From: Schmidtea polychroa
Lineage: Eukaryota
DNA: 64,000 nucleotides
Direction of reading: 5' to 3'
Assembly (NCBI GenBank): GCA_044892525.1
Contig: CM097885.1
Coordinates: 45,136,001-45,200,000, forward strand
Shown here: positions 8,612-43,287 of the stretch, piece by piece
Numbering within the stretch: the first letter of the stretch is position 1
How the letters are laid out: every line of letters starts with the position of its first letter
Notes under the pieces: model-generated
Databases searched by the model: none
Seen by the model: only the letters and a program-made list of their open reading frames with translations
Told to the model about the DNA's origin: nothing
Made by a program: the position numbers and the translations under genes

Positions 8612-11410
8612 GAATATAAAAACTATATAAATTTAGCATTTTAAACAAATTTATTAATTTTATTAATTTTATAAAAATTTTTTGATATTTAATAAAAACA
8701 TTTCATCTTTTTTTAATTTCAATATTTTTTACTGAAGAAATTATCTTATTTACTGAAACATAAATCACTGAACATTTTGATTAAATTACTGAATGTTCTG
8801 AAATTAATCTTTCATTTTATTAATATTAGGAATAATTTTGTTTTACATTAACAAAATATTTCTATTTTATTTGAATATATAAATTGTCAACAAATAAGTC
8901 ATCACTAATTTATTATTAAATTCCTTTGAAAGACGGGAAATTAAATTTATTATATATTCATAATTCATCAACGGAAGTTTTCATTTATTAGTTATAACAT
9001 TAAAACAACAATTTATTTATTTCGATTGAATATAGTTATGGTTTTATATCACGTCTTTTTAGTTATTTAGATATCTACATATAGTCTGCTTTATAAATGA
9101 GAGTCACTCATATTGTTTGAAATATTTATAACTGAGAAAATAAATCAGTTATTATTTATTGCTTTAATTTAAACAAATAATTTTTGAAATAAAATGAATA
9201 AAATTTTTTCTATTATTAATATCAAATTAATTGAAATTTTAGGCACATTATTGCCAATAAGCATCTAGGTAATGACTGACTGACCTGCAATAGATTCAAA
9301 ATTACAGTTTAACAAATTATATATTATAAAATACTTGAATATTTTTGTTGTTCAGAATTGCAAAAATAATCCACTTATTTTTCTTTTTAATCAGTTTTGG
9401 TTTACGAAAATTTATGTTGTTTATATTTATGTTTAATATTAATTAACAATTTTGTTTAAAACTAAATTTGAGTTTCTTAATGACTTATTTGGGAATTTTC
9501 GGTATTTATATTTATTTTTATATTTTTATTTATTTTATATTTATTTTTAATTATATTTCTAAATTATTTTTTTTTGTATCAATAAAGACAACTAAAAATT
9601 TCTTTTTATTTCATTTGTATAAAATAAAACATTAATATTTCTATAAAAACTGTTAGAATTATTTAGAATTTATTAATTTTTAAAAATCTAGAGAATATAA
9701 ATTGAACATAGTCCGTCAATGGTGAAAAAGAATACCGATAATTAGAAAATATTTTTTTGAAAAAAATTAATAAATTTAAAAGGAATTCACTTTGTCAGGG
9801 AAATAAATTTTTTCATATTTATAAATTGTCCTAAAAAGTTTTCGATATAAATTCCAGTATTTATGAAATTAAAAATATAAACTATTTTTATTACAATTCA
9901 ATTCTGTCAGACGTCCAAACATTATTCAGAAATTTGTTATCATTCTAGATCAATAGTGCTCATTTTAAAAATTACCAGTATATTCGTGGATCAGAAATTA
10001 TTTAAATTGTATAATATCCTATTGTTTTTGAAAATCAATTAAAAACAATAAACAAATGAATAATTAATAAAAATTATTCTTTTCAAAAATTTAAAATAAA
10101 TAATTAACATTAGCCTTGCATTTTTACAATTTGTAGTCAAAATAAAAATAATTAAGATTCTTCAAAAATTTAAATTATTAAGTTAATTAATTTATCTAAA
10201 ATACGATGAAATAATTTGATAATAGCACAAACATTGGAAATATTTGATACACAGTTGACAATTATAGAGTGAGATCAGGTTTCTAACATAATTTTGGTGA
10301 CAGCCAAAAAGTTCATAACTAATCTGCCATTAGAAATCACCTGGAATATCAATTTTAATAAACTTTATTTTATTCAGTACGTCATTCAAAAACCAAAAAA
10401 CATGTATTTTGAATGAGATTTACTATTTTTGGCGCACATAAAATTTTTCAACTATTAGTAACACCTTGAAATAAAAGTGCTAATTATTTTATTTAATAAT
10501 ATTAATTTCTAATTTATTTGTGTTTTATTTTAATTATTATTAAATATTTAATTTAAATTATCATAAAACTTATTTGTATCAATTCATTTTTTTCAGAAAC
10601 AAATTATAAATGATTAAAATATAAAGTTAACATAGCCAAGTATAACTCAAACACTTTTAAATAAACAATAAGCGCAACTTCATTTCAAGATCAAGCAAAT
10701 AAATGAAAGTCTTGTTAATATATTATTATTAAAACAAACAAAGTGAAACAAGTTCACCGTGAAATCCTTAAATTCTTTTATCGTTTTTGTCATTGATCGA
10801 CTTTTAATTTTTAATTTTTAGTTGTGATTATCTTTATTTTAGACTATATGTCTATCTTTTTATTTAACATAAAATTTCGGATAAAACGTTTGGAAAAACA
10901 TGTGCAACGAAATTCTTGTTAAATAAAAAAATATTGTTCTATACAAACAATAGCTTCCAACAGCAGATTATCTTATAGTTTATAACGTAAATCGAAAATA
11001 TAATATTAAGCCTAAAAAGGGTTGCAGTACCATAGTAAATAATTTTTGGAAATGTTAATCATTGAGTTTTAATTAAAATTATATTTATGAAATCAAAGAT
11101 TTTTGAATTTAAACACCCCAAGTCAAAGGATTAATTTTTTACATCATTAATATTTTTTAAGAATTATCGGTTAAATTGTTTTATTTTTTCTAAATTTTTC
11201 ACCAGAAATATTTATTATCTTTTTGTTTAATATTAATAAATCAATAAATATAATATAACAACAAAGGTTTTTGGTTAAATTCATTGAACGAAAAAGAAAT
11301 ATATATTAATAAATATTAAAAAAAACAATAAATAACCTTTATTTATTTAAAAAAAGAAACAATCCCAAAGGAATTATTCAAATAATTATTTTTCATTCAA
11401 CTCTTTTCTA

Positions 11411-11850
11411 TTATCTTCCAAACATTATCGGATCAAATCGTTTTCCAAACTGGATTGGATCGAATCTCTTACCAAACTGGATTGGATCGAATCTCTTACC
11501 AAACTGGATTGGATCGAATCGCTTGCCAAACTGGATTGGATCGAATCTCTTACCAAACTGAATTGGGTCGAATCGCTTACCAAATTGGATTGGATCGAAT
11601 CGCTTACCGAATTGTATCGGATCAAATTTTTTCCCGAATTGAATTGGATCAAATCGTTTTCCAAATTGAATAGGATCAAATTTTTTGTAAAACAGAATCG
11701 GATCATATCCTCCATCAGACTGATTAAGCTCATATATCTTTTTTATGAAACGTTTTATCAATTCTAATAGTATTTCATATAATTTACCTGTGGGTATCCA
11801 GATATGACATGAAATAAACCTACAGTTATAATTAGAGTGACATGTGTCAT
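11411..11850 (-). CDS. spp-15: Neuropeptide precursor, 123 aa, two coding exons (11850-11788, 11719-11411): 9x FDPIQFamide, 1x FDPIMFamide and an N-terminal GYDPILFY peptide
   Basis: ATG at 11850 begins a signal peptide (MTHVTLIITVGLFHVISG-YPQ). A 68-nt GT..CAG phase-0 intron (11787-11720) joins it in frame to repeats flanked by G-KR/KK amidation and cleavage sites. The symbol is recalled from the planarian DPIxF peptide family (related to schistosome npp-26) and should be verified. Confidence 0.93.
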
Positions 11851-22529: not shown

Positions 22530-24360
22530 TGTTGATGTCTCTAAACAAAAATTATATTAAATGAAAATAAAATGGAAATTGAATGTAACAAATAGAAAGA
22601 AAATTGTGATCAATCACATAAATGATGGCTGTTGTTGGTTTCCTATGTATATACGTGTTATTATTATTTTTATTATGTTATTATTAAGTGTTATTGTTGA
22701 TATGTATTAGGAGTTTGTAGAACCCGGTAGAGTCTCCAGTAAAAAGTGTGCCAGGACAACCGGGGTGTTTGTATGTAGCTTGATAGAAAAAATACAACAA
22801 CAATAAATAGTAATCACAGACTTTATCAACTAGAAGAAAAACACACTTTTCCAGGTTCGATCAACGAGTCACAGTTATAGAACTATATCTTTTGATTGAA
22901 TATACAATTAGTCTATGACTGCTTTCTGAGAAGGAGATGAGCTTTTCCTAAATGTCTTCCTAGTATTCCATAATAATAAGGGTACTTCGTTTTGTGGGAA
23001 AAGAGATATGAATTACGATCTCAATTAGTTATTCTTAAACCGGAGATGCTTTCAGTTGTCTACACAGACTTCAGTATGAAACTAGGTAATCTGAGATCGG
23101 TTAAGTTGTCATTAGATATGATTCGTTACCAGGATTAGGTTAGGGGAAAATATGTGGATCGTTTATAAGCTGGGAAAGTATTCGGACTAATGTCATAGTT
23201 AATCTTCAACAGTGCCTTTAAATCCAAACAGTATTAGGAAATGGAAGGATAGGTGAATTGCTTCTGATTCTATAGGATATTTTAATTAAACTCTTGATTA
23301 GATCTTGGGAGGCTTTTCAGATTACAGCTGTTAGATTTTGTAGTTTAATTTTATTTGTTTATTGATCTTTCGATTCTTTTATTTCTGTCATGACAATACT
23401 CTAGTTTCACTTAACTATTATAAGCATTATAATAATGATAATAATCACAAATACGTAAAAAGAACAAATCTAACATGCAGTAATGATAATAATAAAATCA
23501 ACAATAATAACAAAAATAACAGTATATTACAATGGCAAAGTAAATTATGATGGAAACAGAGTTAGGAAAGGGTACAGTTAGATTCGAAATGCAAAATGCG
23601 GAAATTTAAGGAAAAATTAATAGATTTTATTTATCGAAATTGAATTTGGAAAACGGGACAGGTATAGACTAGCTAATGTCGAAAAACATGGTGATTAGGA
23701 ATCGGTCAGAAAATGTATAGGAAGAGTCAAAAAGTATGGAAATGCGTAAAAATAGAAAATCGTAAATTAATTAATTAATTGGCTAATGGAAAATCCGAGC
23801 TTAGCAAATACGAAGGGGTAACAGAAAAGCGCAATCAATCACCATTGGCTCTCAGACGATATTCAAGAAAATCGCTTGTCAACGCGTTGCCAGACAGAGA
23901 AAATTTGGCCGAAGCCTAATTAATCAAAATGAGTATTCTGGTACATAAGGAAACTAAGAATTAAAAACAATCGGCCTTTCGCCTCAGCTAAAAAGAAGAA
24001 AACGAGATTAGGTTAAAAGTAGCATAGTTAGAAGGAATAAGATAAAAAGGATTAGTGAAGCGATCAAATAAATGACTACAGCAGAGATCTCTAAAGAGCT
24101 GAATAAAGAGAAAACGAAATTGTTAACGAAAAAGAGTTCAATCCAGAGGAAGCTTATATATAAGGTGATTATTTTTATACAACACACGAGGTCAAGACAT
24201 CACACGGCGAATAGGACGTTATATCATTGTTGTGGATTTAAAAAGATTGTAGTAATTTGAAACAAAATATATACATTTGAAGTGTTATTTGTTGAAAATT
24301 TATAGAGCAAGAAGAGTAAGAGACACCGACTCGTAGTATTAAGTTTAATAAAACCCAAGA
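22530..24360 (+). mobile_element. Older family-A solo LTR (about 924 bp) interrupted by a family-B solo LTR
   Basis: Starts TGTTGATG and ends AAAACCCAAGA, with 4-bp TSD ATTC (22526-22529, 24361-24364). Clearly homologous to the LTR at 25320, e.g. AAAGGGTACA...TTATCGAAATTGAA...TTAATTAATTGGCTAATGG. Confidence 0.8.
22630..23531. mobile_element. Family-B solo LTR nested in the family-A solo LTR
   Basis: TG...ATTACA ends with 5-bp TSD ATGGC (22625-22629, 23532-23536); conserved hairpin at 22723-22764. Confidence 0.8.
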
Positions 24361-24825: not shown

Positions 24826-24951
24826 TATATGATTTTTTTATTACATCGTTAATTTTTCTGCAGTTGCCAGTGTACTGATATAATTTATTTCTCTTTTAAA
24901 CTTCAATATTCAAAGCTTTAGTTGATCCATTTTATTGAGTAAATTGATATA

Positions 24952-25319
24952 ATATAAACATTACAAGCTTTGTGATACCCAGTGCAAATTCCAATAGTAG
25001 ACTAGTTTCGAGCTTTTGGCTCTCATCTGTATTATGCTGGAGAAGTGAAGATTTTTCTTCGCGCCAGGTAAATATACAATATTGCTGATTCAACTCTATT
25101 GCATACATTCCCTGGTACACTGGAAATCATATCACCTGCAAATTAGACGTGATTTCCAGTGTACTAGGGAATGTACTAGGGTTCAGCAATATTGTATTCA
25201 TACCTGGCGCGGAGAGAAATTTTCACGTCTCCTGCATAGTACTAATGAGAGCCAAAAGCTAGAATCTAGTCTACTATTGGGATTTGCACTGGCTATCACA
25301 AAGCTTGTAATGTTTATAT
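24952..25319. repeat. Long imperfect palindrome (foldback/MITE-like)
   Basis: Arm 24952-25088 is the near reverse complement of 25183-25319. The spacer has a further inverted pair (GTACACTGGAAATCA / TGATTTCCAGTGTAC). Confidence 0.85.
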
Positions 25320-26307
25320 TGTTGAGGTTTGAAAATAAATTATTAAATTATATAGTTCAGATTAAAAGGAAAGCCGAAATTGAATGGCGGTCAAGCAGAG
25401 AAGCAATGGCAAAGAAAGATATGATAAAAACAGAACTATAAAAGGGTACAATCAGACATGAAATGGGAAAATGCGCAAACCGGAGGAAGTGGAATAAAGT
25501 GAAAAGTTATCGAAATTGAAGCTGGAAAACGGGAGAGGGGTAGATTAAGGGATGGTGAAGAAGACAGTGAGCAAGAAATTGTTAGAAAATGTGTAGAAAG
25601 GGTCGTAAAACAGACAAATGTGGAAAAACGTAAAATATTAATTAATTAATTGGCTAATGGGAAACCCGAGCTAATGAGAAGCCCGAGCCAATGGAGAACC
25701 CGAGCGATGAAGAAAACCCGAGCACGGCAATTTGGAAGGGTAAACAAACGAGGAATTCAGAGGGCCATTATCCAAACAACCGGATAAACGAGGGTAAACA
25801 AAAGACGGAGAATTACGAAAAGGGTCAACAAAAATAGTCAATTAGGGAATGATAGCGGAAGAAGTCAAAACCAATTAGGTCAAAAACGGGGCAATTACAA
25901 CGATTATGGGAGTATATAAGGAAACTCAAAATTCACATAATCGGCGATAGCCTTAGGTAGGGATACGAAGAAACAGACGATAGGAGTTCGAGGAATAAAA
26001 TAAAAGAAAAAAGGAATTATAAGAGGAATTTAGGAGTCAGAAAGGAATATTAAAAGAGTTCGGATCAGAGAGCGGAATCAAACAAAAGGTGAAACCTATT
26101 TTTTTAAATCGTACAAGGCCGAGACCTTCCAGAGCGGAGTTCGATCTGAAATTGTGTGAGAATTGTGATTAACCAACAGTGTGATTAATTGTTGAGAGTT
26201 CTGAATTGTTATAAAACAAATATACGTTGGGAGTTTGTGTTTATTGATTTTGGAACACGTGGAGTCTGAGTAACCAACGGTTGATTTTGATATCATAAAA
26301 CCCAACA
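25320..26307 (+). repeat. 5' LTR (988 bp)
   Basis: TGTTGAGG...AAAACCCAACA; TATATAAG at 25913-25920 and AATAAA near 25993; direct repeat of 33712-34665. Confidence 0.95.
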
Positions 26308-26314
26308 TATATTT

Positions 26315-26332
26315 TGGTGAGCCCGACGTGAT
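26315..26332 (+). promoter_or_regulatory. Primer binding site, tRNA-Trp type
   Basis: TGGTGAGCCCGACGTGAT differs at one position from the canonical Trp PBS TGGTGACCCCGACGTGAT; 7 nt separate it from the LTR end. Confidence 0.85.
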
Positions 26333-26457
26333 TAAACGTTGGTGGGCGAATATTGAAGGGTGAAAGAGGTGAAGAAAATTAAAGTAATAAGAAAATTGAA
26401 AATAATTGGAAATTGGAAGAGGTAGTAATTATTGATTATTAATTTTAATATTTAGCC

Positions 26458-28845
26458 GTGAGTGAATACAATTTGAGAAACCGAAAAGTAAAGATGGCCA
26501 GAGAGAACGCTGAGATGATAGATTTTGCCAGTTGTCAAAAATTACCGATGAATCAGTATGGAGGAGACCCGGTTGATTTTGCCGATTTCATGGGCGATTA
26601 TTATATGTACGCTTCGGCCTATGGGTGGTCACAAGCCATAATGGTACAAAGATTCCCACTCTATTTAAAAGGAGCCACAAGAGAAGCTTGGCAGCAAGTG
26701 GATAAAAAGACAATTGGAAATGATTGGGCCAAACTCAAGGATGCGATGGCAATGAAATTGGTGGGAGGCGATAAAAAAAGAATAATGCGCCAAAACTTTT
26801 ATGCCAGAGTACAAAATCCAAATGAATCGGTAAGTGAATTTGCATACCGTTTAACGACTTTAGCAGACAAAGCCTTCGAAGCAAAGCCTGAACAAGTGGA
26901 GATGGTAAAACAAGTCAGAGAATTGCTAGAAGATCAATTTATAACTGGAGCCCATCCTGAAATTAAAAAACCACTATGCTACGTGGATTTTTCGAATTTC
27001 GATGAACTCGTGAAAAAAGCAATGAAAATTGAATTGAATTTAAAAAGTACCAGAAAATCTGAAGTATTTGCCGCAAATGCCGAGAAAAGAGAAAGGTCGA
27101 TAACTCCAGTAAAGAATCAATGGGAATCAAAAGAACCAATTCAACCAAACAGCTCTCCAAGATTAGGTAATAAATTGGAAGTTAATAAAGCAACTTTTAG
27201 CAATCAAATAAACGAGATAGCGAAGAATATTGTATGCGAGTTTTGCAAGAAGCCTGGACATTATTCAAATCAATGTTGGTTCAGAAATGGTAGAAATATG
27301 AGTCCCAAAGGAAGACTTACTGAAAATAAGCCAAACAATGGTGACATTGAATGTCATCGATGTGGAAAAATGGGCCACATTAGCAGAAATTGTTTTTCAA
27401 GGACTATATCACCTTCTAGATATCCCAAGAAATCAAGTAAATTTCAAGATGAATCAATCAATGCCAATGTAGTTTATGCTCAAAAAGACGACTTTCAAGA
27501 AAAGATAGAAAATGAAGTTCGAGAAATGAGGAAAAAATTAGACAAGTTGATGTCGAAAATTGAATTTGATGATGAAGCAGACTCTTATATGGCGTACGAA
27601 AATATTTCGGAAAACTTTGCTAATAAAGTAAAAAATGACTTGTTGAACGAAAAGGCTACGTTGTTATTAAATAAAATGGAAAGATGGCTCGAAAATATGG
27701 AAACAAACAATCCAAGATTGAAAGAATGGGTTACAGAGTTAAGTCAGATCCAACTTAGTCATAAGAAATTGAAAAGTGCATTGAACTTATGTTCTAAGCT
27801 TTACAGCATACTCCAAGATGAGGAAATTGCTAAATTAATGAGAACATTTGGAAAAGCATTAAGATCCAAAAACGATTTGGATAATATTATCGTGGAGACC
27901 ACAGACATCAATGGTATTAAAGCTCAATTTTCTATCAATCCTTATGGACAAATCAAAGATTTGACAATGCTTATTCTGGCTAAATACAATAAAGGCAGCG
28001 TGAAATTGACACAACGGCAAATGGGACAACTGAGGGATGAGGAATACTTGGTAGATTGTGGTTTAATCCCTGGATTAAAAAATGAGGTAAATATTTTGGA
28101 TACTTTTAATCATTCAAATTCAGATTTTAAAAAATGGAACGAAATTTTAGGGAATTTGCGAGACATGTTATATATTGGAGATGAGGACGAGATCAATAAA
28201 TGTCTTGAATTAGTGATGAGTTCAAAAATGAATGGAAAAGATAAGGAGAAGCTGTTCGAATGTATTATGCCGCATATTCATAAAGAAACGAAATATCAAA
28301 CCAGATTAAAGGAAACTCTACGGAAATTAAAATATGATTACAGAGAACCGGAGTGTAATTCGAAATCATTAATGATAGCTCTAAATATTGATGGAAAAGT
28401 TGAATACTTTCAAGAGCACTGGAGCGTTAAGGTGTCAAAATTACGACAAAAAGCTGCAGAAACAATGGAAAATAATGAGATTATTGTACTGACTTACAAA
28501 GGAATAGTGTTGGACGATGACGAAAATTTAGTTAATTGCGGGTTTAATCCAAATGACATAAATAATGTTTATGCAACGAAGCCAAAGGATGACATGTCTG
28601 AAAACGAGGTCATTGTAACTCACTGGCCTAGAATCGTAAAAGAGGAAGATGATGAGATTGGAGCAATTAAAACTGAATTATCTGAGGAGCTAAATGAAGC
28701 TGAGTTGAAAGGTTTTGAGTCAAAAAACAAAATTTTACATGAAGTGCGAAATGGAAATGTAACTGATGTCAATGAAACTGATGCAGCAAGTCAAGAAATT
28801 TATAATATGAATGGCAAGCCGATAAAAACGGAAGAATTAAAATGA
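26458..28845 (+). CDS. gag: Gag polyprotein with capsid-like region, two CCHC zinc knuckles and two ubiquitin-like domains
   Basis: Retrotransposon-gag motifs (FPLYLKGATREAW; FYARVQNPNESVSEFAYRL; EDQFITG). Knuckles CEFCKKPGHYSNQC (27235-27276) and CHRCGKMGHISRNC (27352-27393). Ubl-like segments at 27883-28098 and 28363-28575. First ATG at 26494. Confidence 0.92.
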   Translation: MSEYNLRNRKVKMARENAEMIDFASCQKLPMNQYGGDPVDFADFMGDYYMYASAYGWSQAIMVQRFPLYLKGATREAWQQVDKKTIGNDWAKLKDAMAMKLVGGDKKRIMRQNFYARVQNPNESVSEFAYRLTTLADKAFEAKPEQVEMVKQVRELLEDQFITGAHPEIKKPLCYVDFSNFDELVKKAMKIELNLKSTRKSEVFAANAEKRERSITPVKNQWESKEPIQPNSSPRLGNKLEVNKATFSNQINEIAKNIVCEFCKKPGHYSNQCWFRNGRNMSPKGRLTENKPNNGDIECHRCGKMGHISRNCFSRTISPSRYPKKSSKFQDESINANVVYAQKDDFQEKIENEVREMRKKLDKLMSKIEFDDEADSYMAYENISENFANKVKNDLLNEKATLLLNKMERWLENMETNNPRLKEWVTELSQIQLSHKKLKSALNLCSKLYSILQDEEIAKLMRTFGKALRSKNDLDNIIVETTDINGIKAQFSINPYGQIKDLTMLILAKYNKGSVKLTQRQMGQLRDEEYLVDCGLIPGLKNEVNILDTFNHSNSDFKKWNEILGNLRDMLYIGDEDEINKCLELVMSSKMNGKDKEKLFECIMPHIHKETKYQTRLKETLRKLKYDYREPECNSKSLMIALNIDGKVEYFQEHWSVKVSKLRQKAAETMENNEIIVLTYKGIVLDDDENLVNCGFNPNDINNVYATKPKDDMSENEVIVTHWPRIVKEEDDEIGAIKTELSEELNEAELKGFESKNKILHEVRNGNVTDVNETDAASQEIYNMNGKPIKTEELK

Positions 28846-28848
28846 GAA

Positions 28849-30444
28849 TTGAAGTTTATTGAAATTGGTAATACTGATAAATCAAATAACCGTAAGCGGA
28901 AAAAGTGTGAGTTAACAGAAAAAGACGATTTAAGCGATGTAAAAATAGATTTAAATGATTTTATTAAAACAAAAGTGATTTTAAAAAGGTTGGTAATGGA
29001 AATATATGCACTAAATGAAGAGAATGTATATGAAAATGAATTTATGCAACAACTTGCGAAACAGCTGAAAAGGAGATTTCCAATCATACTTCAATATAGC
29101 GTTAAAGGAAATGTATTTTGTGATGAAACAGTAATCAAGAAGTTAATTAACAAGGGTTTGAACAGAGACGTAGTATTGACGGTTCTAGCTTGTATGGTCT
29201 TGAAAATTGGCACACATGGTTGTTTGGACTCGGAAAAAATGGAAAAGTGGATCGAAAAAGCCACCAAAGTGGCAAATACATATGTGACAAACTGGATAAA
29301 ATATAATGGTGGATGGAAAAATTTGGTACTAAAACCGAGGAATTCAAAAAGGGTGTATGAGTTAAAAAAGGCAAAAATGATATATACATGGTTGACGATG
29401 TTTGTTTTTGTAATTTTAGGAATCATCAACAATACAACGTTATTGGTAGTACATGATTATTCTCAAATTAAAAAGAAAATTCCCAGAAATGTAAAAATTT
29501 ATAAAGAATATAAAATTGTGAGTACTGATCTGAAAGAAAAGCAGAGGAAAAATTTCAAAGGTTGGGTAAAGAAATATCAGGATATTTTTATAAAACAAAA
29601 TGAAGCAAAAAGGGACACGAAACTTCAATTTACCAAAAATAAAACTTTAAACAGTTATAGTAATAAAGTGTTAATTACAACAAAACAAATAGAGAGTAAT
29701 AACTTACGAGAGCCATTCACACCGAATTATGACAAAAATACTTACGTGGCACGAGAGCTAAAGGCAAATTTCAAGCCCCCGTGGAGGAATAAACAAAACG
29801 AGACATACACTCCTGAAAAATTCAACAATCAAATTAGAGTTAAAGTAAAAACAAATGAATTATATAACATTGAGAAAGTTATAGAAAATAAATGGTCATT
29901 GTTTAAAGTTGACAGCCAGTTAAACCATTGGAAAAACGAGTCAAATCGAGTAGTTTTTACAGTTCAAAATAAATCAGCGATAGCATATCAAAATTCGGAA
30001 ATCGACAAAAGAAGCATTATCTGTAGTGGACAAAAAATTATCGTTTTGTTGGATGCCGGTAAAAGCTATTTTTCATTTATTACTCCTAATTTAGAATATA
30101 ATTACCTGATAAAAATTAAATACCAACAACGGATATTCGAGCCATATCGATGGCAAACAACTTTATTGGAGACAAAAATGGTGCCAAAGCTGAAATCCGA
30201 CATAACCATTACACGTCCAACTTCTACAAGTCAATATCAATTTAACAATCGTCTAATAAATAAACGGACTCAAATTGAGATTGGTCAAACTTTAATCATC
30301 TGTGAATATTCGATATACCTCATACTGACAGCATTCCTCATACTATCGCTTAGGTTAAGAGTAATAACAATCATTTTGTGTGGAAATAGACAGCATACTA
30401 TAAATGACTTACGACTCGAATCTTTCAATGTGATCAAAATGTGA
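28849..30444 (+). CDS. ORF2, in frame with gag: Bcl-2-like domain, TM anchor and degenerate pol-like remnants
   Basis: BH2 motif TNWIKYNGGWKNLV (29287-29328) with a degenerate BH1-like INKGLNRDVVLTVLACMV and a hydrophobic segment IYTWLTMFVFVILGII. Later KKYQDIF resembles the pre-RT linker, and IIVLLDAG (DAG at 30052-30060) resembles a retropepsin active site. Confidence 0.8.
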   Translation: MKFIEIGNTDKSNNRKRKKCELTEKDDLSDVKIDLNDFIKTKVILKRLVMEIYALNEENVYENEFMQQLAKQLKRRFPIILQYSVKGNVFCDETVIKKLINKGLNRDVVLTVLACMVLKIGTHGCLDSEKMEKWIEKATKVANTYVTNWIKYNGGWKNLVLKPRNSKRVYELKKAKMIYTWLTMFVFVILGIINNTTLLVVHDYSQIKKKIPRNVKIYKEYKIVSTDLKEKQRKNFKGWVKKYQDIFIKQNEAKRDTKLQFTKNKTLNSYSNKVLITTKQIESNNLREPFTPNYDKNTYVARELKANFKPPWRNKQNETYTPEKFNNQIRVKVKTNELYNIEKVIENKWSLFKVDSQLNHWKNESNRVVFTVQNKSAIAYQNSEIDKRSIICSGQKIIVLLDAGKSYFSFITPNLEYNYLIKIKYQQRIFEPYRWQTTLLETKMVPKLKSDITITRPTSTSQYQFNNRLINKRTQIEIGQTLIICEYSIYLILTAFLILSLRLRVITIILCGNRQHTINDLRLESFNVIKM

Positions 30445-31615
30445 TAAAAACTATATTATAAAATTACATGCGTGTAAACAAATTTTAAAAATTAGCATGG
30501 TTATATGAATGTAGATTTGTTACTGTGTTTGGTCGAACTTCGCTATGGTATGCTTGGCCTTGCGCGATAAAGAGTGTTTAAGAAAACTTTAATTATATTT
30601 AACTTCAGGAAGCCCAAGAGGAAGAGTCAATCAAAGAGTGTCGAAACTCAATGAAAGAAATGAGAAGATAAATGAAACCAATGGAGAGGAAAATTGACGA
30701 CTTGGAACTAGAAGATACGATTTGTAAAAGAAAGCTGGAAAGGATGGAAATTCTCTTGTTCCAATTCGAAGCTGAAATCGTATTGTTGAAAATGCAGATG
30801 CAGGGACAGGAATGACCTACTAATAAGGAGGGAGAGATGAACGCGGTACATTAAAATAATTTAATAATTGCTATTAATAAATATTTACAATGAAAACCTC
30901 ACTTTCGTCCTCGAAGTACCAAAAATAATGAGAAAGACTAAACAAAAAAAAAATAAATAAATTAACTAATAAAATTTAATAATAATAGCATAAAGAAATG
31001 ATAGCAAATAAATAAAATAAAAATTTGTAACCTAAGACTTAAAATTGAATAATCAAAATGAGTTCATTAAAATTTGATAAAATGTGCATTTAAAATTGGA
31101 TAAAACCGACACAAAATCTGTCGCTGTACCATAGCAAACACGCTCTATAATTAATAATGCATAATTGATAGCTTCCAATCATTAAGATACACTCAACATT
31201 TAGATAGGAAGCTTGTTATATTGGAAAATCGAATTCCTATTACAAGGAAGATGAAAGAGAAATATTTAATAATGAAATGGAAAATTATTTTTTAATATTT
31301 TTTTTTGAATGGTTATTAGAATGTAATTTTTCACATAAATAATTTTAAAGGTTTAATAATTTTCTATTAACTGTCTTAAAATTGCTCATTTGAAATCCAA
31401 ACGATATTGGGCATGAATACATATTGCGGTAACGACACAAGCTACTCCAAGAAAAAGCATAATAATAAAATAATAAAATGTAAAATAATAATTTGTAGTT
31501 ACATTTAACAAAAAAAAAATTTTTTTCCATTACAGCAAGTCACAAACTTGATACAGAACTTCTGTTTCCATTCTTCAGCTGTTTTCCGCTGTAATCGACC
31601 ATAACTATCTTCAAG

Positions 31616-31947
31616 TCAACGAGCTCTTGAAACTTGTAGTTCAAGTTCTTTTTCATTGAAAATGGATATCAAATTTTTGGGTATGATTTCGTAAAACCCT
31701 TCGAGAAAACTATGAAGTTGTTGGTGAATAGCTCCAATCATTTTCTCTTGACAAACTAATTTAACAGATTCAGATTTATTTTCCTCTGTGAGAAGCACTA
31801 GAGAGTTTCTGTCGGTCCAAATTCTGATATTTGAATAGAAAACGTTTGATAGAGAGACATTGTCAAAACATCCTTTTCTATAGGAATTCCGAACCAGGGA
31901 AAAACTGATAGTATTCTTTTTCTAGATCAGTACATCAAATATATTTG
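31616..31947 (-). pseudogene. HUWE1: Captured HECT-domain exon fragment of a HUWE1-type E3 ubiquitin ligase, antisense to the LTR element
   Basis: Reads [15 protein letters not shown]..., (frameshift) [21 protein letters not shown]..., [52 protein letters not shown]. This is colinear with the HUWE1 HECT as recalled. An acceptor-like TTACAG lies at 31953-31948. Confidence 0.85.
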
Positions 31948-33601
31948 CTGTAATTTTTAATGAGTTATCAAAAAGTTCTATTATTTAACAATAATTCATT
32001 TTTCATGAAATTTCAAGCCTGAAAAGCATATCAAAATTATTAAAAATAATTTTTAAATAAAATTTATATAGAATATTATTAAATTAAATAAAAAAATGAT
32101 AAAATAAAATGGTCTTACAAAATAGGCAATAAAACTAAATTAAATCTAGTCAAGTAGTGTGTAAAAATCCAATACACACTACATAGTTCTTATTGTAGAA
32201 ATGCCGAGTGTGTGTTTGTAGAATGCACGAACCATCATCCGGAATTAGAGTGCGCTTGGAACGATCTGTAGAGAAATATTGTTGATTGCCTAACATGTTC
32301 AATAAAATTTTGTATCCTCTACTGTGACATTAATTCCAATTCTTTTATTTTTTCAAATATCAGTGATGACAATAAAGATCTTATTAAACGAAAATTCAAA
32401 AATAAAAATGCCATTATTTTTACTTTAGATATCGACTTAAATGTTGATGGTTCATACATTTTCCACTTCAATAATACCAATCAATTAATTCAAAAGCTTT
32501 TAGAATTTTTATCTCAACAACATCGAACTTTTTCATTACAGGCACTTATTGATAAATTGGAATTCCCATCGACAAATAATTTGGGTCGATTATTCTCTAT
32601 TAATTGGAAATGATTTTTGACAGCTATTTCTGATTAATTTATATAAAATCAAAATTTTTACATAATCATATTTTTGATATCTAATAATAATTCATTATTT
32701 TGTTATTAATTTTCTGATTTGCTATTAATTGATTGATGATTTGTTATTAATTGCTGATTTGTTATTAATTGATTTGCTGTTTCTTATCATAACTTAGGTT
32801 CTGAACAGTTAATTGTCTGAGAGATTAGTACTTTCTTGAATTGAATTGAATTTTTTGAGTTGGATTGGTTGTGATGTTATCAAGTGCATGGCTTCTACGA
32901 ACACACCCAACTGAAAATAAATAAATAAAATTCAATTAGCAAATCATCCTTACCGTAGTTGATTAAAATAACAAATAATGTCGAAGTTTTGTTGTGATGG
33001 AATAAATAAAATTCAATTAGCAAATTACAAACTAAATGATTACCAGACAAATCCGAATGAGATTTTGGGTAGTAGTACAGTTTATATATGATATTTCTCT
33101 GCCAGCAGTAATTACACAGCACTTCAGCACCAGCCGATCAGAATTGATAAGACACGCCTATATCGTAGATTGTTTGGTATATTTGTGTATTTGGGTTGAT
33201 GTGAGTTTGGAATCACTGTTTGTGCAACCACTACACAAATCAATGTTTATCATATTGGTTCCGGTGGACGGTTGGAGTGGGTCGTTTGAAAATTAGCTCC
33301 TATCTCGGAACAAACAAACTGTGATAAATTTTAACCTCCTTTAACTCGATTCAAATGTTGATCGATGGAATATTTTAAATTGAACTGCAATGATAAAACT
33401 GATATATGGGTAATCTAAATCATTAAACATTATGCATGTTAAATTAAAGACGAATTTTAATAAAATTAATAATAGTCTAATAAAGTCTAATAAAATTAAT
33501 AATAGTCTCAAAATTTTAAATATCTATCAATTTAAAAAAAAAATAATCTCAAAATTTTAATATTCTAAATATTTTATGACTCTCCAATCAAATGAAATTA
33601 A

Positions 33602-33698: not shown

Positions 33699-33711
33699 AA
33701 GGGGGGAGATA
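33699..33711 (+). promoter_or_regulatory. Polypurine tract
   Basis: AAGGGGGGAGATA immediately before the TG of the 3' LTR. Confidence 0.9.
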
Positions 33712-34665
33712 TGTTGAGGTTTGAAAATAAATTATTAAATTATATAGTTCAGATTAAAAGGAAAGCCGAAATTGAATGGCGGTCAAGCAGAGAAGCAATG
33801 GCAAAGAAAGATATGATAAAAACAGAACTATAAAAGGGTACAATCAGACATGAAATGGGAAAATGCGCAAACCGGAGGAAGTGGAATAAAGTGAAAAGTT
33901 ATCGAAATTGAAGCTGGAAAACGGGAGAGGGGTAGATTAAGGGATGGTGAAGAAGACAGTGAGCAAGAAATTGTTAGAAAATGTGTAGAAAGGGTCGTAA
34001 AACAGACAAATGTGGAAAAACGTAAAATATTAATTAATTAATTGGCTAATGGGAAACCCGAGCTAATGAGAAGCCCGAGCCAATGGAGAACCCGAGCGAT
34101 GAAGAAAACCCGAGCACGGCAATTTGGAAGGGTAAACAAACGAGGAATTCAGAGGGCCATTATCCAAACAACCGGATAAACGAGGGTAAACAAAAGACGG
34201 AGAATTACGAAGAGGGTCAACAAAAATAGTCAATTAGGGAATGATAGCGGAAGAAGTCAAAACCAATTAGGTCAAAAACGGGGCAATTACAACGATTATC
34301 GGCGATAGCCTTAGGTAGGGATACGAAGAAACAGACGATAGGAGTTCGAGGAATAAAATAAAAGAAAAAAGGAATTATAAGAGGAATTTAGGAGTCAGAA
34401 AGGAATATTAAAAGAGTTCGGATCAGAGAGCGGAATCAAACAAAAGGTGAAACCTATTTTTTTAAATCGTACAAGGCCGAGACCTTCCAGAGCGGAGTTC
34501 GATCTGAAATTGTGTGAGAATTGTGATTGACCAACAGTGTGATTAATTGTTGAGAGTTCTGAATTGTTATAAAACAAATATACGTTGGGAGTTTGTGTTT
34601 ATTGATTTTGGAACACGTGGAGTCTGAGTAACCAACGGTTGATTTTGATATCATAAAACCCAACA
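33712..34665 (+). repeat. 3' LTR (954 bp)
   Basis: Matches the 5' LTR except for a 34-bp deletion and two substitutions seen by eye (25820/34212, 26171/34529). Confidence 0.95.
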
Positions 34666-34849
34666 ATATTATTTTAATGTTAGACATCAGTAAAAAAATA
34701 TTTTTCACCATTATAAATTGATATAATTTATGTATTGACTAATATTAGTGAGTTCAATAAAAGTTGTGTAAATTGGTATGACTGATTTTCTAAATTTAAT
34801 TTTATTAGTTATCGGGAATTTCAGTAGTGTTCGACAAAGAATAATTTTG

Positions 34850-36441: not shown

Positions 36442-39188
36442 CAACGTTCCCTCTAATTTTTAAAATTGGTGTGTGTGTGCTAACTGCAATGTGGGCAAGT
36501 ATATTAAATTAAAAAAAAATTGGGCAAAATTTCAAAAAAAAATTTTTTTTTTCATTTTATTTTTGTAATATGTAAATAATAAAAAAATTTTACACGTTGC
36601 ATTATATTACATTCAAGCAAGTATTACTAATTTAATAAAAAGTTATAAATAGAAAACAAAAACAATATACCTATATTATATTCAAAAGGTAAAATAACTA
36701 TTAAAAATAAAAAATTATAAAATCAAAATTTAATGTTTTTCACGTCTGTCCTTATTAACAACCCAATGTTCATAAATACTGTCTAAATTAATATTGCCTC
36801 CTGATGTGATAAACGTTTTTATTCGCATCAAGTTATCTAAATTATTAATCTTTAATCTGTTTCGTGATTTTGATTTTATAGCATTCATCAAGCTAAAACC
36901 ACGTTCACAATCTGCACTGGATGACTGAAATGTAGCACAGATATCTAGAAGCACTGTCAATTCTTTAAATTGTGAATCTGCATTAGCCAGCTTAACTAAA
37001 TCAAAAAAATTAGCTACGGAATTACTTTTCATCTTTTCAATTATTAAAAACTTAAAATCGTTATATTGTTTTGAAATTGATGTTCCAATTTGTTCGTCAT
37101 ATCCGGGAATTATATTTTTATATTTTTTAACCAGCTTTTCTATACAATCTTGACCAAAGTTAAAATCTTTTGAATTTATTATAGCATTATGATCAAATGC
37201 ATGCCAATCCATTACGTCTTCTTCTGGAAACCTATTCTTTAAATGTATACATAGCAATTCGATAAATCGTAAAATTGCTGAAGTGTCGATACCAGGATTT
37301 TTACCAATTAGATCTTTTATATCATTATTCCAATGAACTATTTCGCCTAAATATTGGTTTTCGATTTTGTTGATCCTTGCTTTAGCAAATTGCATTGCAT
37401 CCATTATTGTCAACAAACTCCTCTGAAATATTTTACAAAGAGATGACAACTCTTCAAGAACGTCATTTAAAACCATTAATGAAAGGCGATATTTTGGATC
37501 GTTAAGAAGTTTTAAGCAATATTTGCATATTGGATCATTACATTTCTCCACTTCCTCAGTGCAGTATTCTATCAATAGATCGTACTTACGAATAAATGCT
37601 CTTACTGCAAAATGTCTTGACAGCCATCTAACTTCCTTTAATGGACGAAATGCTAATACATCACATTCAGTTACGCTTGCCAATTCTTCAAAGCTTGCTT
37701 TCTTTACGGTTGATCTACTAAACATGGTAAATACTGTCTTTAATAATGTTTCAATATCACACATTATTGGTACTTTTTCCAAGCATCATCAATTCCTAAA
37801 TCTTCCTTGTGTGCTACACAATGCTGCTGCGATAAATGAGGGATTCTGTTCCGTAACAATGCAGCCACACCATTATTCTTACCAAGCATTACAGAAGCAC
37901 CGTCTGATGTAAACATTACCATATTATGCATATTGATATTATTTTTTATATAAAATTCATAAATAGCTTCAAATATGAAGGAACTAGTACATCCAGTCAA
38001 TTTTAAAATTCCTGCAAATACGGTTTTATGGTCAGAAGAAGTTTTTGGCCGGTATTTTATGTATAAAATTAAAGTTTTGTGTGTAGATATATCAGTACTT
38101 TCATCAACAATTAAACAATGAAATAACGATTCTCTTAGTTCCTCAAGAAACTGTTTTTGTATTACAAAAAGTAATGCATTGAACAAATTCGAATGCATAA
38201 TTCTTGCTGCGCCAACTTTTGGGAATAGATATATATTTTTCCATATACTCATGAATTTCCTGTACTGATGACATCGAAGTGTTAATTTTTATTGCAAGAA
38301 TAACGTTGTCTATCAAAATTTTGGTATCGTTTTTATTAGATTTTTTACGTTCTATCAAATCTGCACGTATCTGTCGTTCTTCTGTAGAGGAAGTTAACAT
38401 TTCAACAATTCCACCTTTTTTGCAATTACGTAATTTTATTACCGAATCTAAATGTACTTTTTGGCTTAAATGCCTCTTTGAGTAGTACAACTTCCAATTC
38501 GCCCAGTTTTTGCCATTTTTAAACTCACTTTCAGTTTTTGCTTCGGTACATATTTTGCAAAGTACATCATTGGTTTCAATTTGATAATTAAAAATATCAC
38601 CTAATTTAATTTTTTCTTTTATAGTTGACGATGAGACGCATGTTTCAACAATTTCATTTAACCATTCTTTTTTGAATTTTGAAGATGTCTTGATTGTGGA
38701 TTTTAAGCTTTCATCGAATTTTCGTTTTGACATACTAAATGTATAAAAAATAAAGGGATTGCATTTTAAAATAATTTTTGAAATAAATATCACAGCCTTC
38801 TCAACATTAAAATAAATAATCAAAATCATAGTGCAAAATTTAATTTACTGTAGATTACTTACTTATTTATTATTTTTCTATCATGTCGTGGTGTTATCTG
38901 TTAGTTAATTTTAAATTTCACATCCACATTTATTGAATTCAAAAAAGTGAACATTGACATTTAATTTCAATGTTGCCAATTGAGACATACTAAAACAAAT
39001 AACCCAGAATTTAGTGTGGAAATCTATACGAAATTTTCAACTGGGTGCGTTTACGCAATGAAAATGGTGACAAATAAAAAAAATTATTGTTTGCAATAAT
39101 TTCTAGTGGGCGGATAGAAATGCTGAGTGGGCAAATGTCAATTTTTAACTGGGCGGCCGCCCGTTTGCCCAGCTTAGAGGGAACGTTG
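36442..39188 (-). mobile_element. Full-length hAT transposon (2747 bp) with a twice-frameshifted transposase (ZNF862-like)
   Basis: TIRs CAACGTTCCCTCTAA / TTAGAGGGAACGTTG with 8-bp TSD GTAATTAC (36434-36441, 39189-39196). Overlapping ORFs 38143-38829, 37764-38252 (VDESTD, SDGASVM, HCVAHK) and 36730-37782 (RWLSR, SSADCERGFSLMN). Confidence 0.95.
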
Positions 39189-39936
39189 GTAATTACATTT
39201 AATATCTTTTATAATCCCATTAATAATAATGATAGTAATACCACGTAATAAAATTCTGACTAATAATTAGTATAACAATGGCCATTAAGATAATAACCAT
39301 AGAGATAAAATTAAAAAAAATAATGTTAATAATAATAGTGATGCTTATAATAATGGGGAATAATAATGATAATGATAAACAACCTTATTAGTATTCATAA
39401 TAATAATAAAAATCCTGGTGCTAATAATGGTAACAATAATAGGGATAATAATAACCGTCACCATAATTAAATGTTAATATAAGCCCTTTGCTGTGAAAAT
39501 CCAACACTTTTTGTCATCATTATTACAAGATGTTACCCGTCAAAAATAATGTAGCAATTTTTTAGTTTCGATATATTTAATCTATATTTAATTGTATTCA
39601 AAACATATAATTGAAAAACTTTTTAATGACAATAATTTTAGTAAATGTTTTCGAGTTATTAAGTAATTGGCCCTGATATAATATAGTTTTTTAATATTTA
39701 TCTACTTATAATTATAGAGTAGTATAAAAATTATTTATCGGACAGACNNNNNNNNNNNNNNNNNNNNNNNNNNNNNNNNNNNNNNNNNNNNNNNNNNNNN
39801 NNNNNNNNNNNNNNNNNNNNNNNNNNNNNNNNNNNNNNNNNNNNNNNNNNNNNNNNNNNNNNNNNNNNNNNNNNNNNNNNNNNNNNNNNNNNNNNNNNNN
39901 NNNNNTAAGCCTTTTGCTGCAAATAATGTATTTAAT

Positions 39937-39975
39937 GAAAGAATTTTCGACTATACGATAGTCCTTGTCAATCTC
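39937..39975 (-). ncRNA. Minimal type I hammerhead ribozyme, U3-A8 variant, sense to the PLE
   Basis: GAGA-UUGACAA-G-GACUAU(CGU)AUAGUC-GAA-AAUU-C-UUUC. Confidence 0.75.
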
Positions 39976-40380
39976 CTGGAATTTAGCAATGTTCTTCTTC
40001 AAAATACCCTTCAATCTTTCTTTTATTTCCTTTCTCTTAATTCTCATTGGTTGTAAATATAATGAATTGTTTTACTAAAAACTTTTAAAATTTTTTTATA
40101 ATTTTTACATTTAAAATTTCAAAATGACACAAACTAAAATTTTTAAATTTTTTACAGCTTCTATAATTAGCTTCTAGAAGCCTAATAAAATATTTGAAAA
40201 TATTTTAAATAAAGCCTCCAATAACTACTTATATATGCTATTTAAATATTTCAATAAATGTGTCAATTTTGATTTTCAAACCCTATTTTTTAAAATTTTT
40301 TTCTATATTATTCTAATTATTACTTTTTAATTTATTCTTATTTTTTTAATTTCTTTGTATATTGTCAGTTATTCTCAAAG

Positions 40381-42951
40381 TCAATGACAACAGATCAAAT
40401 TCATGATTTCATTGATTTCTTCTTTAGTGTTGATCTTTGGCTGTCTGTTTATTATGAGAATTGCTTCTTTGATTCTGACATTTTTCTTTTGGATGTTTCC
40501 ATTAGCTATGATTTCTATTGAAATATTTTTTCTTTCCTCTGTTGGCTGACACTGCCGGAGATGTCTGCCCAACGAGGATGTTCCACCAGGATCTAGATGT
40601 TCTTTAACTCTTTGGTGCAATGTCCTGAGGGTACTTCCAATGTAGATTTCATTGCATACATTGCACGTGATGCAATAGACGATGTTTTTTCTAAAGCACC
40701 TATCTTTCGGTGTCTGGCAGTTTTTCATTGTGCAATTGTTTTCTCTATTTATGTTGCCTGCCAGAGCCCTTCTCAATGTCCAAGATTTATGTGCTATCCG
40801 AATTGGAAGACCGGTACGTTTAAGTTCTTTCAGGATCTTGAAGTCGAGTATGTCACTGATGAATGGGATATTCAGATAGAAATATTTCTGATTCTTTTGT
40901 GTTAATTCCCTAGATCTTCTTGGGGTAGAATTCATTTTTTCAATGTCCTCACCTTGGTATCCGTTTCGGTGTAGGATTTTATTGAAATTTGATTGCTCTT
41001 TAAAGTTTTCGTTTTTCTCCGTGCATCGATTGGCTATTCTTCGTTTCTCGTTTCTTATGACATTTACTTTCTGTAAGTATGGAAGCGCTGATCTTTGGTG
41101 CATAAATATTTCTTTGCGAGCTGGTTTTCTGTAGAACCCGTATGTTGGAGTATTTTCTTCTATTTTGATTCTCAAATCCAATAAATTGAGGGATCCATCT
41201 TCTTCCGGATATTCGATTTCGAACTTAATATCTTGATGAGCCGCATTGAATGAATGAAATATTTCCTCCGCTTCTTTTCTGTTTTTGGTCAAGATGAAGA
41301 TATCATCTACATATCTTGCATAGAAACCGATGGGTTGTATGGTCCTCAGTGTCTGTCGTTCGAGGTTATCCATAAAGATGATTGCTAGCAGTCCTGATAT
41401 GCTAGAACCCATAGGCAGACCTTTAACTTGTTTATAGATATTTTGTTCAAAGGTAAAATAGGTGTTCTCGAGGATAACAGTAAGTAGTTTGGTGATATTC
41501 TCGGTATTCATTTCCTTTATTAACAAGTTGCTTTCTCTTAATTTCTTTTCTAAACATTGAATAGCCTCTGTTGGTTCGATAGATGTGTATAGTGATACGA
41601 CATCAAGACTAAATGGGTATTGGAATTCTCTATGACAAGTCATGTTATTATTTAGTCTTGTCATGAGGCAGTCGCTGCTTTGAAGATGGTGTGGTATCGT
41701 GTCCAATAAAGGTTTCAAGATCTTTGCAAGGAGCCAACTTGTTTTAGTTGTTGGTCCATTTTTGTTGGACACTATAGGTCTAATTTTGATACCAGGACCC
41801 TCTTTGTGAGTTTTAATTAGGTGGTAGAAGTTAGGAAGATCAGAATTTTTTGTGACGAAGCTGTTGGTTATTCTGTTGTTGAGCCTCATTTCCAAAGCTA
41901 TGGCTTTCCATACTTTGTTGATCTTCATTTCGATGGTGTTTGGTGACATGCGGCTGACTTTCTTGTATGTTTCGATGTTGCCGAGGTGTTCGTAACCAGC
42001 TTCACAGTAACGATTCTTCTCTATAATGCAAAATTCTCCCCCCTTGTCACTTGGTAAGTAAACGTACGGTTTCTTTTTAAGGGATTTTAATATTGCCTGT
42101 TCGTCTTTCGTTAGGTTTGAGAGATATGGTTTTCTTCTTTCCTTCTCAACTAACTCCATGATTTTGTGACAGACCTTTGAGAGTGTTGAATCTAATTCTG
42201 CATCAGGATTTGGTTGATAGAGTTTATCTGTGTTTATGTATACTGGGAGCTGGTTTTCGCTATTTTCATTTTCATGCGGTATTGTATTGTTCCATTTGAT
42301 CTGGTACGCAATGCGACAAAGAGCTGTTTTGAAATTGAGGATGGCTGCTTCATCTATTTCTCTGTTTATACTGAACTTTGGTCCTAGTGAAAGTAATCCT
42401 TTTTCACCTTTGGATAGACAATTTGTGAGGTCGGTTACTAGTTCTTTGTTCACTGTAATGCTTTCGTTTCCGTCCAGTGTTTCATTGTTCTTAACAAGGC
42501 CTGCTTTGAGCTCCTTTTTTCTCAAAAGGTGTTTGATTCTTTTGTCAAATCGCAAGGAATAATGTACTTCTGCTGTCATGAAGGATTGTCTTTGTACCTC
42601 GTAGATCAATTCTTTTGGGTGGTTATTCAAATACGTTTTCAAAATGTTTTCTTGATTCTTTTGTTCCCGATGAGTTTCTCCGTACATACTTCTAATTAAA
42701 TTTGTTAAAATATAATCTTTGATGTTTTTATTTCTCTTGATGTTTTGATCTTTGTTGAGAATCTGAGGTAAGTGGATGTTATCAATTGTTGTTGGAAAGA
42801 TCTTTATTTCCTTACATCGGCGAAGGAAATTTATTTGGCAGTATAATTTCGCAATTTTCTCGTTGATTCTAGCTAAATTCCGTATTTCCAAGTATTTTGC
42901 CCGGCTCAGGCCTTTTGAAAGTATAAAATGATGATTGCTTGGTAGCAGCAT
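40381..42951 (-). CDS. Penelope-like reverse transcriptase with GIY-YIG endonuclease, 856 aa, uninterrupted
   Basis: PSDKGG, KIRPIVS, SLDVVSLYTSI, GLPMGSSISGLLA and YARYVDDIF motifs; C-terminal NIVYCITCNVCNEIYIGSTLRTLHQRVKEH. Confidence 0.96.
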   Translation of the reverse strand: MLLPSNHHFILSKGLSRAKYLEIRNLARINEKIAKLYCQINFLRRCKEIKIFPTTIDNIHLPQILNKDQNIKRNKNIKDYILTNLIRSMYGETHREQKNQENILKTYLNNHPKELIYEVQRQSFMTAEVHYSLRFDKRIKHLLRKKELKAGLVKNNETLDGNESITVNKELVTDLTNCLSKGEKGLLSLGPKFSINREIDEAAILNFKTALCRIAYQIKWNNTIPHENENSENQLPVYINTDKLYQPNPDAELDSTLSKVCHKIMELVEKERRKPYLSNLTKDEQAILKSLKKKPYVYLPSDKGGEFCIIEKNRYCEAGYEHLGNIETYKKVSRMSPNTIEMKINKVWKAIALEMRLNNRITNSFVTKNSDLPNFYHLIKTHKEGPGIKIRPIVSNKNGPTTKTSWLLAKILKPLLDTIPHHLQSSDCLMTRLNNNMTCHREFQYPFSLDVVSLYTSIEPTEAIQCLEKKLRESNLLIKEMNTENITKLLTVILENTYFTFEQNIYKQVKGLPMGSSISGLLAIIFMDNLERQTLRTIQPIGFYARYVDDIFILTKNRKEAEEIFHSFNAAHQDIKFEIEYPEEDGSLNLLDLRIKIEENTPTYGFYRKPARKEIFMHQRSALPYLQKVNVIRNEKRRIANRCTEKNENFKEQSNFNKILHRNGYQGEDIEKMNSTPRRSRELTQKNQKYFYLNIPFISDILDFKILKELKRTGLPIRIAHKSWTLRRALAGNINRENNCTMKNCQTPKDRCFRKNIVYCITCNVCNEIYIGSTLRTLHQRVKEHLDPGGTSSLGRHLRQCQPTEERKNISIEIIANGNIQKKNVRIKEAILIINRQPKINTKEEINEIMNLICCH

Positions 42952-43209
42952 TTATTATTTAAAACAATAAAATGATAATTTAAGCCTTTTGCTGCAAATA
43001 ATGCTTCTAGAAGCTAATTATAGAAGCTGTAAAAAATTTAAAAATTTTAGTTTGTGTCATTTTGAAATTTTAAATGTAAAAATTATAAAAAAAATTTTAA
43101 AAGTTTTTAGTAAAACAATTCATTATATTTACAACCAATGAGAATTAAGAGAAAGGAAATAAAAGAAAGATTGAAGGGTATTTTGAAGAAGAACATTGCT
43201 AAATTCCAG

Positions 43210-43248
43210 GAGATTGACAAGGACTATCGTATAGTCGAAAATTCTTTC
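43210..43248 (+). ncRNA. Second, identical hammerhead copy in the inverted pLTR
   Basis: Same sequence as 39937-39975 on the opposite strand. Confidence 0.75.
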
Positions 43249-43287
43249 ATTAAATACATTATTTGCAGCAAAAGGCTTAAATTATCA

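Follow-up and report, generated by a model that had tools for sequence, protein, structure and literature searches.

The analysed window is a 64,000-nucleotide stretch of Schmidtea polychroa DNA (assembly GCA_044892525.1, contig CM097885.1, positions 45,136,001 to 45,200,000). It carries a long terminal repeat (LTR) element of 9,346 bp, a non-autonomous, compact Burro-type gypsy, whose frame encodes two segments that are very probably ubiquitin-like (Ubl) domains of the beta-grasp fold. Both Ubl peptides, Ubl1 and Ubl2, lie in a plus-strand open reading frame at 26449-28845 with its ATG at 26494. The copy in the window belongs to a parasitic family and is itself broken. In autonomous relatives, the same two domains belong to a long polyprotein, and the cassette that holds them, from helix 1 to Ubl2, is under purifying selection that is relaxed in the window family.

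Two probable, paralogous ubiquitin-like domains

Each test of ubiquitin likeness is weak, yet the tests are consistent with one another: Pfam, profile searches of the PDB and the ESM Atlas converge, all without reaching curated cut-offs. An earlier note, made from the letters of this DNA alone, had called the segments ubiquitin-like, and to this extent it is borne out. Ubl2 of the window matches Pfam PF00240 with an E-value of 0.0023, below the curated cut-off, and Ubl1 of the window itself has no PF00240 match; among nine aligned family members the match is found in four, for Ubl1 and for Ubl2 alike. A profile of Ubl1 gives 100 PDB matches at E≤10, the best 60 being mostly ubiquitin, NEDD8 and UBL5; among these 60, single domains reach E-values of 0.01-0.9 only, the strongest scores being those of poly-ubiquitin repeats. 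With the Ubl2 profile, 12 of 23 PDB matches are ubiquitin-like (ubiquitin variants, ISG15 and other Ubls; best E 0.02). Unnamed clusters rank first for both domains in the ESM Atlas, and the named neighbours are ubiquitin and Rad60-SLD, at 0.92 for Ubl2 and at 0.88-0.89 for Ubl1, the latter a lead only.

Homology between Ubl1 and Ubl2 extends over their C-terminal 33-45 columns (HHalign P 97%, E 5e-11), which at the sequence level makes them paralogues. The earlier note had proposed that a whole helix+Ubl module was duplicated. The Ubl half of this proposal stands, and the helical half is not supported by sequence, as HHalign between helix 1 and helix 2 gives P 3%. In the models both helical segments form short bundles, and their sets of structural neighbours overlap.

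Neither Ubl ends in di-Gly, as had been noted: none is present in the window, and none occurs within 30 residues of each end of either domain in five related copies from five families (0/5). The C-terminal di-Gly of type I (conjugatable) Ubls is therefore missing. The same result largely refutes the idea that host deubiquitinases process the polyprotein by cutting at the Ubls as spacers, which also sits badly with their very low similarity to ubiquitin and which we regard as wrong in all likelihood.

Structure prediction does not confirm the fold, which counts against the function proposed below, as do the Pfam ubiquitin and Bcl-2 scores, all of which are under curated cut-offs. The mean pLDDT of AlphaFold over the region is 43.8 from the single sequence and 46.4 from a 12-row alignment, with values <50 over both Ubls; a strand-strand-helix-strand order is seen for Ubl2 in the single-sequence model only, again at pLDDT <50. 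Foldseek with both AlphaFold models gives no match at E≤0.001. With no curated cut-off passed and nothing significant from AlphaFold or Foldseek, the segments might not be beta-grasp domains at all and the weak matches might be chance. We consider this very unlikely, since for both domains the ubiquitin clan is indicated by Pfam, by PDB profiles and by the ESM Atlas alike, and since the top weak Foldseek rows are the talin head and the SHANK3 N-terminus, both of which contain beta-grasp subdomains. For the planarian element Burro, an HHpred call at the position of the Ubl has been published (PMC6431247), a further point against chance.

The domains are internal to a polyprotein

The earlier note had placed the Ubls at the C-terminus of Gag. 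This apparent position is an accident of the stop in the window copy: the TGA is found in 0/58 sister copies that cover the codon, so the Ubls are internal. Beyond it the same frame stays open over another 532 codons, which cover a Bcl-2-like domain and a hydrophobic segment, and several sister copies keep frames of 1320-1333 aa. Programmed read-through of the TGA was rejected, as none of the 58 sisters has a stop there. The Bcl-2-like domain of one relative (L034) matches PF00452 with an E-value of 9e-5, below the curated cut-off.

A search of the S. polychroa genome gave 145 matches, from 144 of 1596 candidates scored. Among the matches listed, the 76 rows at ≥75% identity contain no frame >1333 aa. 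The window element has no match to envelope protein (Env), protease (PR), reverse transcriptase (RT) or integrase (IN) within its bounds, and the same holds for all ten-kb copies (43/43); two matches lie beyond the 3' LTR. Rows at 55-62% identity include frames of 3329-3346 aa in elements of ~14-16.5 kb. These autonomous frames of ~3330 aa encode, in order, Gag, two successive helical bundle + Ubl modules, a linker, a Bcl-2-like domain, a hydrophobic segment, Env, PR, RT, RNase H (RH) and IN. The order is common to three autonomous families and to a fourth, more distant one (32% identity), which also has both Ubls. Env of these parents is PF24664 (E 1e-87 to 1e-92), and in the autonomous relatives the hydrophobic segment stands directly 5' of it; the segment is likely both the tail anchor of the Bcl-2-like domain and the signal sequence of Env. 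Aligned to parent L021, the window frame runs to aa 1078, resumes at 2016-2060 and then continues from 3012 onward; the two losses correspond to Env + PR and to RT + RH + the IN core. A motif related to the candidate protease site 3' of the zinc knuckles occurs at the same place in 5/5 related copies and at the RH-IN border, and the motif scan gave no candidate site between Ubl2 and the Bcl-2-like domain.

Compared with the autonomous copy L024, the window element is 92-98% identical over the first 180 aa (capsid) and 55-70% identical beyond (cassette), with synonymous divergences (dS) of 0.11 versus 1.6. This drop indicates that the window family is likely recombinant, with LTR and capsid of the L024 type and a cassette from another lineage, which is probably not among the autonomous matches found. 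Between the 5' LTR and that of autonomous copy L024/L025 the identity is 97%, and elements of the L024 type are the likely helpers of the non-autonomous family.

Selection on the cassette

Between families, the ratio of non-synonymous to synonymous divergence (dN/dS) is 0.12-0.45 for Ubl1 (6/10 pairs computable) and 0.08-0.48 for Ubl2 (9/10 pairs computable). Within families we counted variants common to ≥3 copies. In an autonomous family (41 copies) the cassette has 9 non-synonymous and 22 synonymous variants, corresponding to a ratio of non-synonymous to synonymous polymorphism (pN/pS) of 0.11, and the capsid value is 0.03. In the window family (60 copies) the cassette counts are 35 and 13 (pN/pS about 0.66), those of the capsid 13 and 21 (0.16), and the Bcl-2-like domain reaches 1.18. 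The Fisher test separates the cassettes of the autonomous and non-autonomous families (p 1.8e-4) as well as capsid from cassette within the window family (p 0.003), p-values that are optimistic because counts are small, dS is near saturation and copies are related. A stretch matching 28486-28519 (~11 codons of Ubl2) is missing in 15/59 sisters, four of which still have frames of 1305-1314 aa.

These contrasts bear on the possibility that the Ubls remain on Gag, imitate its ubiquitinated form and so aid assembly or budding. Late domains of retroviruses can be replaced by ubiquitin fused to Gag, the uncleaved precursor would join Gag, Ubls and a membrane segment, and the parents carry Env, all of which fits such a role. 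In the window family, however, it is the capsid and not the Ubls that is constrained (0.16 versus 0.66), the Ubl2 lesion has spread to 15 of the 59 copies, and the candidate protease site lies between Gag and the cassette. An aid to particle assembly, as the earlier note had suggested, is thus disfavoured, and we judge retention on Gag to be improbable.

The Ubls could also help folding or act as built-in signals for turnover, controlling the levels of the polyprotein products, with no host target. Their conserved position, their divergent surface and the number of Ubls, which seems to vary among Burro lineages, agree with this explanation. Sustained purifying selection on both Ubls and on their helical partners suggests specific contacts instead, and the neighbouring cargo of Burro is apoptosis and ubiquitin machinery (PMC6431247). 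We find a role confined to folding or turnover unlikely.

Proposed function

We propose that the Ubl-Ubl-Bcl-2 part is a membrane-anchored accessory protein that docks proteins of the ubiquitin system and keeps the host cell alive, a reading to which we give, as a whole, an even chance. A function as host modulator is a weaker step than the structural identity of the domains. The element protease would cut 3' of the zinc knuckles, freeing the cassette from Gag, and signal peptidase would cut ahead of Env; together the two cuts would leave a tail-anchored helix-Ubl-helix-Ubl-Bcl-2 protein facing the cytosol. Integral Ubls generally bind proteasome receptors, E3s or deubiquitinases, and the Ubls of the element would do the same, probably in a non-canonical manner. 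Docking through the Ubls may set the stability or the reach of the Bcl-2-like modulator of cell death. Mobilisation of the non-autonomous family would fall to the autonomous one with which it has LTR and capsid in common. A role of the Ubls as adaptor or decoy toward the ubiquitin system, proposed in the earlier note, is plausible.

Apart from the structural results and the optimistic p-values given above, several observations count against this proposal. In ubiquitin the hydrophobic patch is centred on one residue, and the site aligned with it varies here (Ubl2 has T or I, Ubl1 mostly K), which makes canonical receptor binding doubtful. In the autonomous family, constraint on the Bcl-2-like domain and on the linker is no more than moderate (0.35 and 0.33, respectively). 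In both samples, copies were ranked by how well their protein scored over the cassette, and the autonomous sample is a small share of its family. Finally, the cassette, dispensable in the window family, could still serve assembly if supplied in trans.

A compact family, half the size of Burro1, that keeps only Ubl-Ubl-Bcl-2 points to the cassette as probably the smallest cargo common to the clade. The cassette is small enough for expression and knock-down, and the contrast between autonomous and non-autonomous families is a natural experiment on the parts needed in cis. An inhibitor of apoptosis protein (IAP) captured by Burro1 is reported to protect stem cells and to support planarian stem cells and regeneration (Lee et al. 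2026, as cited in PMC13465017), and BURRO1 has been shown to be under PIWI control (PMC8532177).

Structure of the element and its surroundings

The element has the LTR pair, target-site duplication, primer-binding site, polypurine tract, multiple copies and absence of pol that characterise non-autonomous LTR elements (Table 1). The two LTRs differ by 2 mismatches and one 34-bp gap, so the insertion is young. The primer-binding site pattern has 954 matches in the genome and 0 in the control.

Table 1 Features of the non-autonomous Burro-type element in the window
Feature	Position	Strand	Remarks
Target-site duplication ATAT, 4 bp	25316..25319		Second copy 34666-34669
5' LTR, TG...CA, 988 bp	25320..26307	+	
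Primer-binding site	26315..26332	+	Complementary to host tRNA-Trp(CCA)
Gag	26494..27400	+	Capsid (PF03732, E 9e-9) and two CCHC zinc knuckles (PF00098)
Candidate element-protease site N-V-V-Y-A	27466..27480	+	3' of knuckles; cleavage predicted
Ubl1, without di-Gly	27880..28107	+	Peptide 27883-28098
Helical bundle 2	28117..28353	+	AlphaFold model; four helices, pLDDT 73-85
Ubl2, without di-Gly	28360..28590	+	Peptide about 28360-28575
In-frame TGA private to the window copy	28843..28845	+	In acidic linker between Ubl2 and Bcl-2-like domain
Bcl-2-like domain	28951..29340	+	PF00452 E 0.006, below curated cut-off
Hydrophobic segment	29380..29451	+	Hydropathy peak at aa 1047 of parent L021
In-frame remnants of parent polyprotein	29464..30444	+	Two large internal losses
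Non-coding 3' region	31127..33600		Mosaic; its pieces also occur at other genomic sites
Polypurine tract	33699..33711	+	
3' LTR, 954 bp	33712..34665	+	

Sequence matching the primer-binding site also ends arrayed tRNA-Trp genes. A 284-bp tandem array of tRNA-Trp(CCA) genes lies from C4:55.02 Mb onward (L134), its pattern having 821 matches in the genome, and this tRNA primes about 950 primer-binding sites.

Pieces of the 3' mosaic match at least four other places in the genome at 85-98%, and two of them, at 31540-31940, are antisense pieces of a HECT E3 gene. The content varies by copy, L028 and L030 having only its first few bases. Much of the mosaic is found ~9 kb downstream of cassettes of the L024 type (C2:140.17 Mb, C1:99.13 Mb and C1:223.39 Mb), a proximity that suggests exchange between helper and non-autonomous elements.

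An imperfect palindrome of 370 bp (24951-25320; 138-nt arms, 89%) abuts the 5' LTR and is possibly a miniature inverted-repeat transposable element hit by the insertion. Older fragments of related LTRs, 72-80% identical, lie at 23530-23801 and 54268-54501. On the minus strand, an 856-aa frame at 40381-42951, by eye resembling a Penelope-type RT whose C-terminal part is GIY-YIG-like, is flanked by inverted arms (39906-40124 / 43061-43279), and 36730-38844 holds a transposase-like gene of three overlapping frames, hAT-like by eye. A 27-bp tandem repeat at 11364-11741 is open on both strands.

Comparison with known systems

The earlier note knew of no gypsy Gag with such an architecture, a view that the literature contradicts. 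According to Arkhipova and Yushenova 2019 (PMC6431247), the polyprotein of planarian Burro begins with Gag, carries a Ubi2/SUMO-like domain placed after MATH and ahead of BCL-2, and continues in frame into Env, which PR follows; a Ubl in a Burro-type polyprotein is thus of a kind already reported. The authors also describe other apoptosis and ubiquitin cargo in Burro and suggest that Burro interferes with apoptosis and ubiquitination (PMC6431247). New as far as searched would be three details: that a compact Burro-type family has its Ubls as a tandem pair, that it has a non-autonomous derivative, and that selection differs between the two. No account of a twin-Ubl family, or of a Burro-like one that is non-autonomous, turned up in the literature covered, outside which fall Grohme 2018, Jurka 2007, Lee 2026 and Repbase. 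Protein databases gave no homologue, which is weak evidence since unannotated proteins of eukaryotic elements are poorly represented there.

Burro1 marks are present in S. polychroa itself, whose genome has elements that combine MATH, Env, Pol and ankyrin domains, with a BIR frame of 392 aa close by. One Burro1-like copy carries a single helix+Ubl-type stretch at the position of the Ubi2/SUMO-like domain. A second Burro family (L039:2343-4196, minus strand) appears to have up to three helix+Ubl modules ahead of its Bcl-2-like domain: the last matches PF00240 (E 0.0024), the middle one has weak beta-grasp matches only, and the first was recognised by eye. A profile of helix 2 + Ubl2 matches the last of these modules with an E-value of 4.6e-7 in a two-sequence search and that of Burro1 weakly. 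Direct phmmer comparison of the window Ubls with Burro1-like frames gave no match, nor did the Ubl slice of Burro1 match Pfam at E≤1.

In a wider interpretation, a TND-like + Ubl module of Burro type (TND, TFIIS N-terminal domain), stackable and present 1-3 times per lineage, would be released with the Bcl-2 fold as a virus-style host modulator; its TND-like part could be a LEDGF-like integrase tether or a decoy for transcription elongation factors. We think this rather unlikely. We are similarly sceptical of the narrower alternative that the helical bundles are TNDs (TND/LEDGF-IBD-like) and that TND-Ubl acts as a nuclear tether or decoy for chromatin, transcription factors or integrase. The bundles have no sequence match to PF08711 or to host TNDs, in searches that would miss distant members, and the pairing of a TND-like with a Ubl domain was not found in the searches made. 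As a separate observation, near-identical frames of 450-520 aa with a TND (PF08711) cluster at C2:164-172 Mb and on C31 (L136-L146), apparently an expanded host gene family.

Whatever the role of the bundles, the autonomous parents of the element that we read as carrying a Ubl-Ubl-Bcl-2 accessory protein resemble Burro1/GYPSM1, as described in PMC6431247, in a Gag-first single polyprotein with Ubl followed by a Bcl-2-like domain (both at sub-cut-off scores), in-frame Env, and PR-RT-RH-IN. Env lies between the Bcl-2-like domain and the protease in the parents and has been lost in the window family. The parents are 60% identical to one Burro1-like copy in RT, 62% in IN, 50% in RH and 38% in Env, compared with 28% in IN and 40% in RH to one other gypsy; in these pairwise comparisons, RT and IN are nearer to Burro1. 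Unlike Burro1 (>30 kb; ORF of about 4873 aa), the parents measure 14-16.5 kb with ~3330 aa, lack MATH, ankyrin and BIR in the polyprotein, and have two helix+Ubl modules in place of one between MATH and Bcl-2.

The window family in turn resembles Gag-retaining non-autonomous LTR derivatives such as maize Bs1: it has intact LTRs, primer-binding site, polypurine tract and gag but lacks pol, it contains pieces of host origin, and its LTR and capsid are almost the same as those of an autonomous family. It differs from the Bs1 type in that the 1320-1333-aa frame of the sister copies, with Ubl and Bcl-2-like cargo, was inherited from the parent and not newly captured. The Ubls themselves are most easily compared to integral type II Ubls (the ubiquilin UBL; the SUMO-like domains of Rad60/Esc2/NIP45; PF00240, PF11976), with which they share a beta-grasp-type sequence pattern, the absence of di-Gly and an embedded position; they depart from these in their sub-cut-off scores, in following a helical bundle each, and in their fusion to a Bcl-2-like domain.
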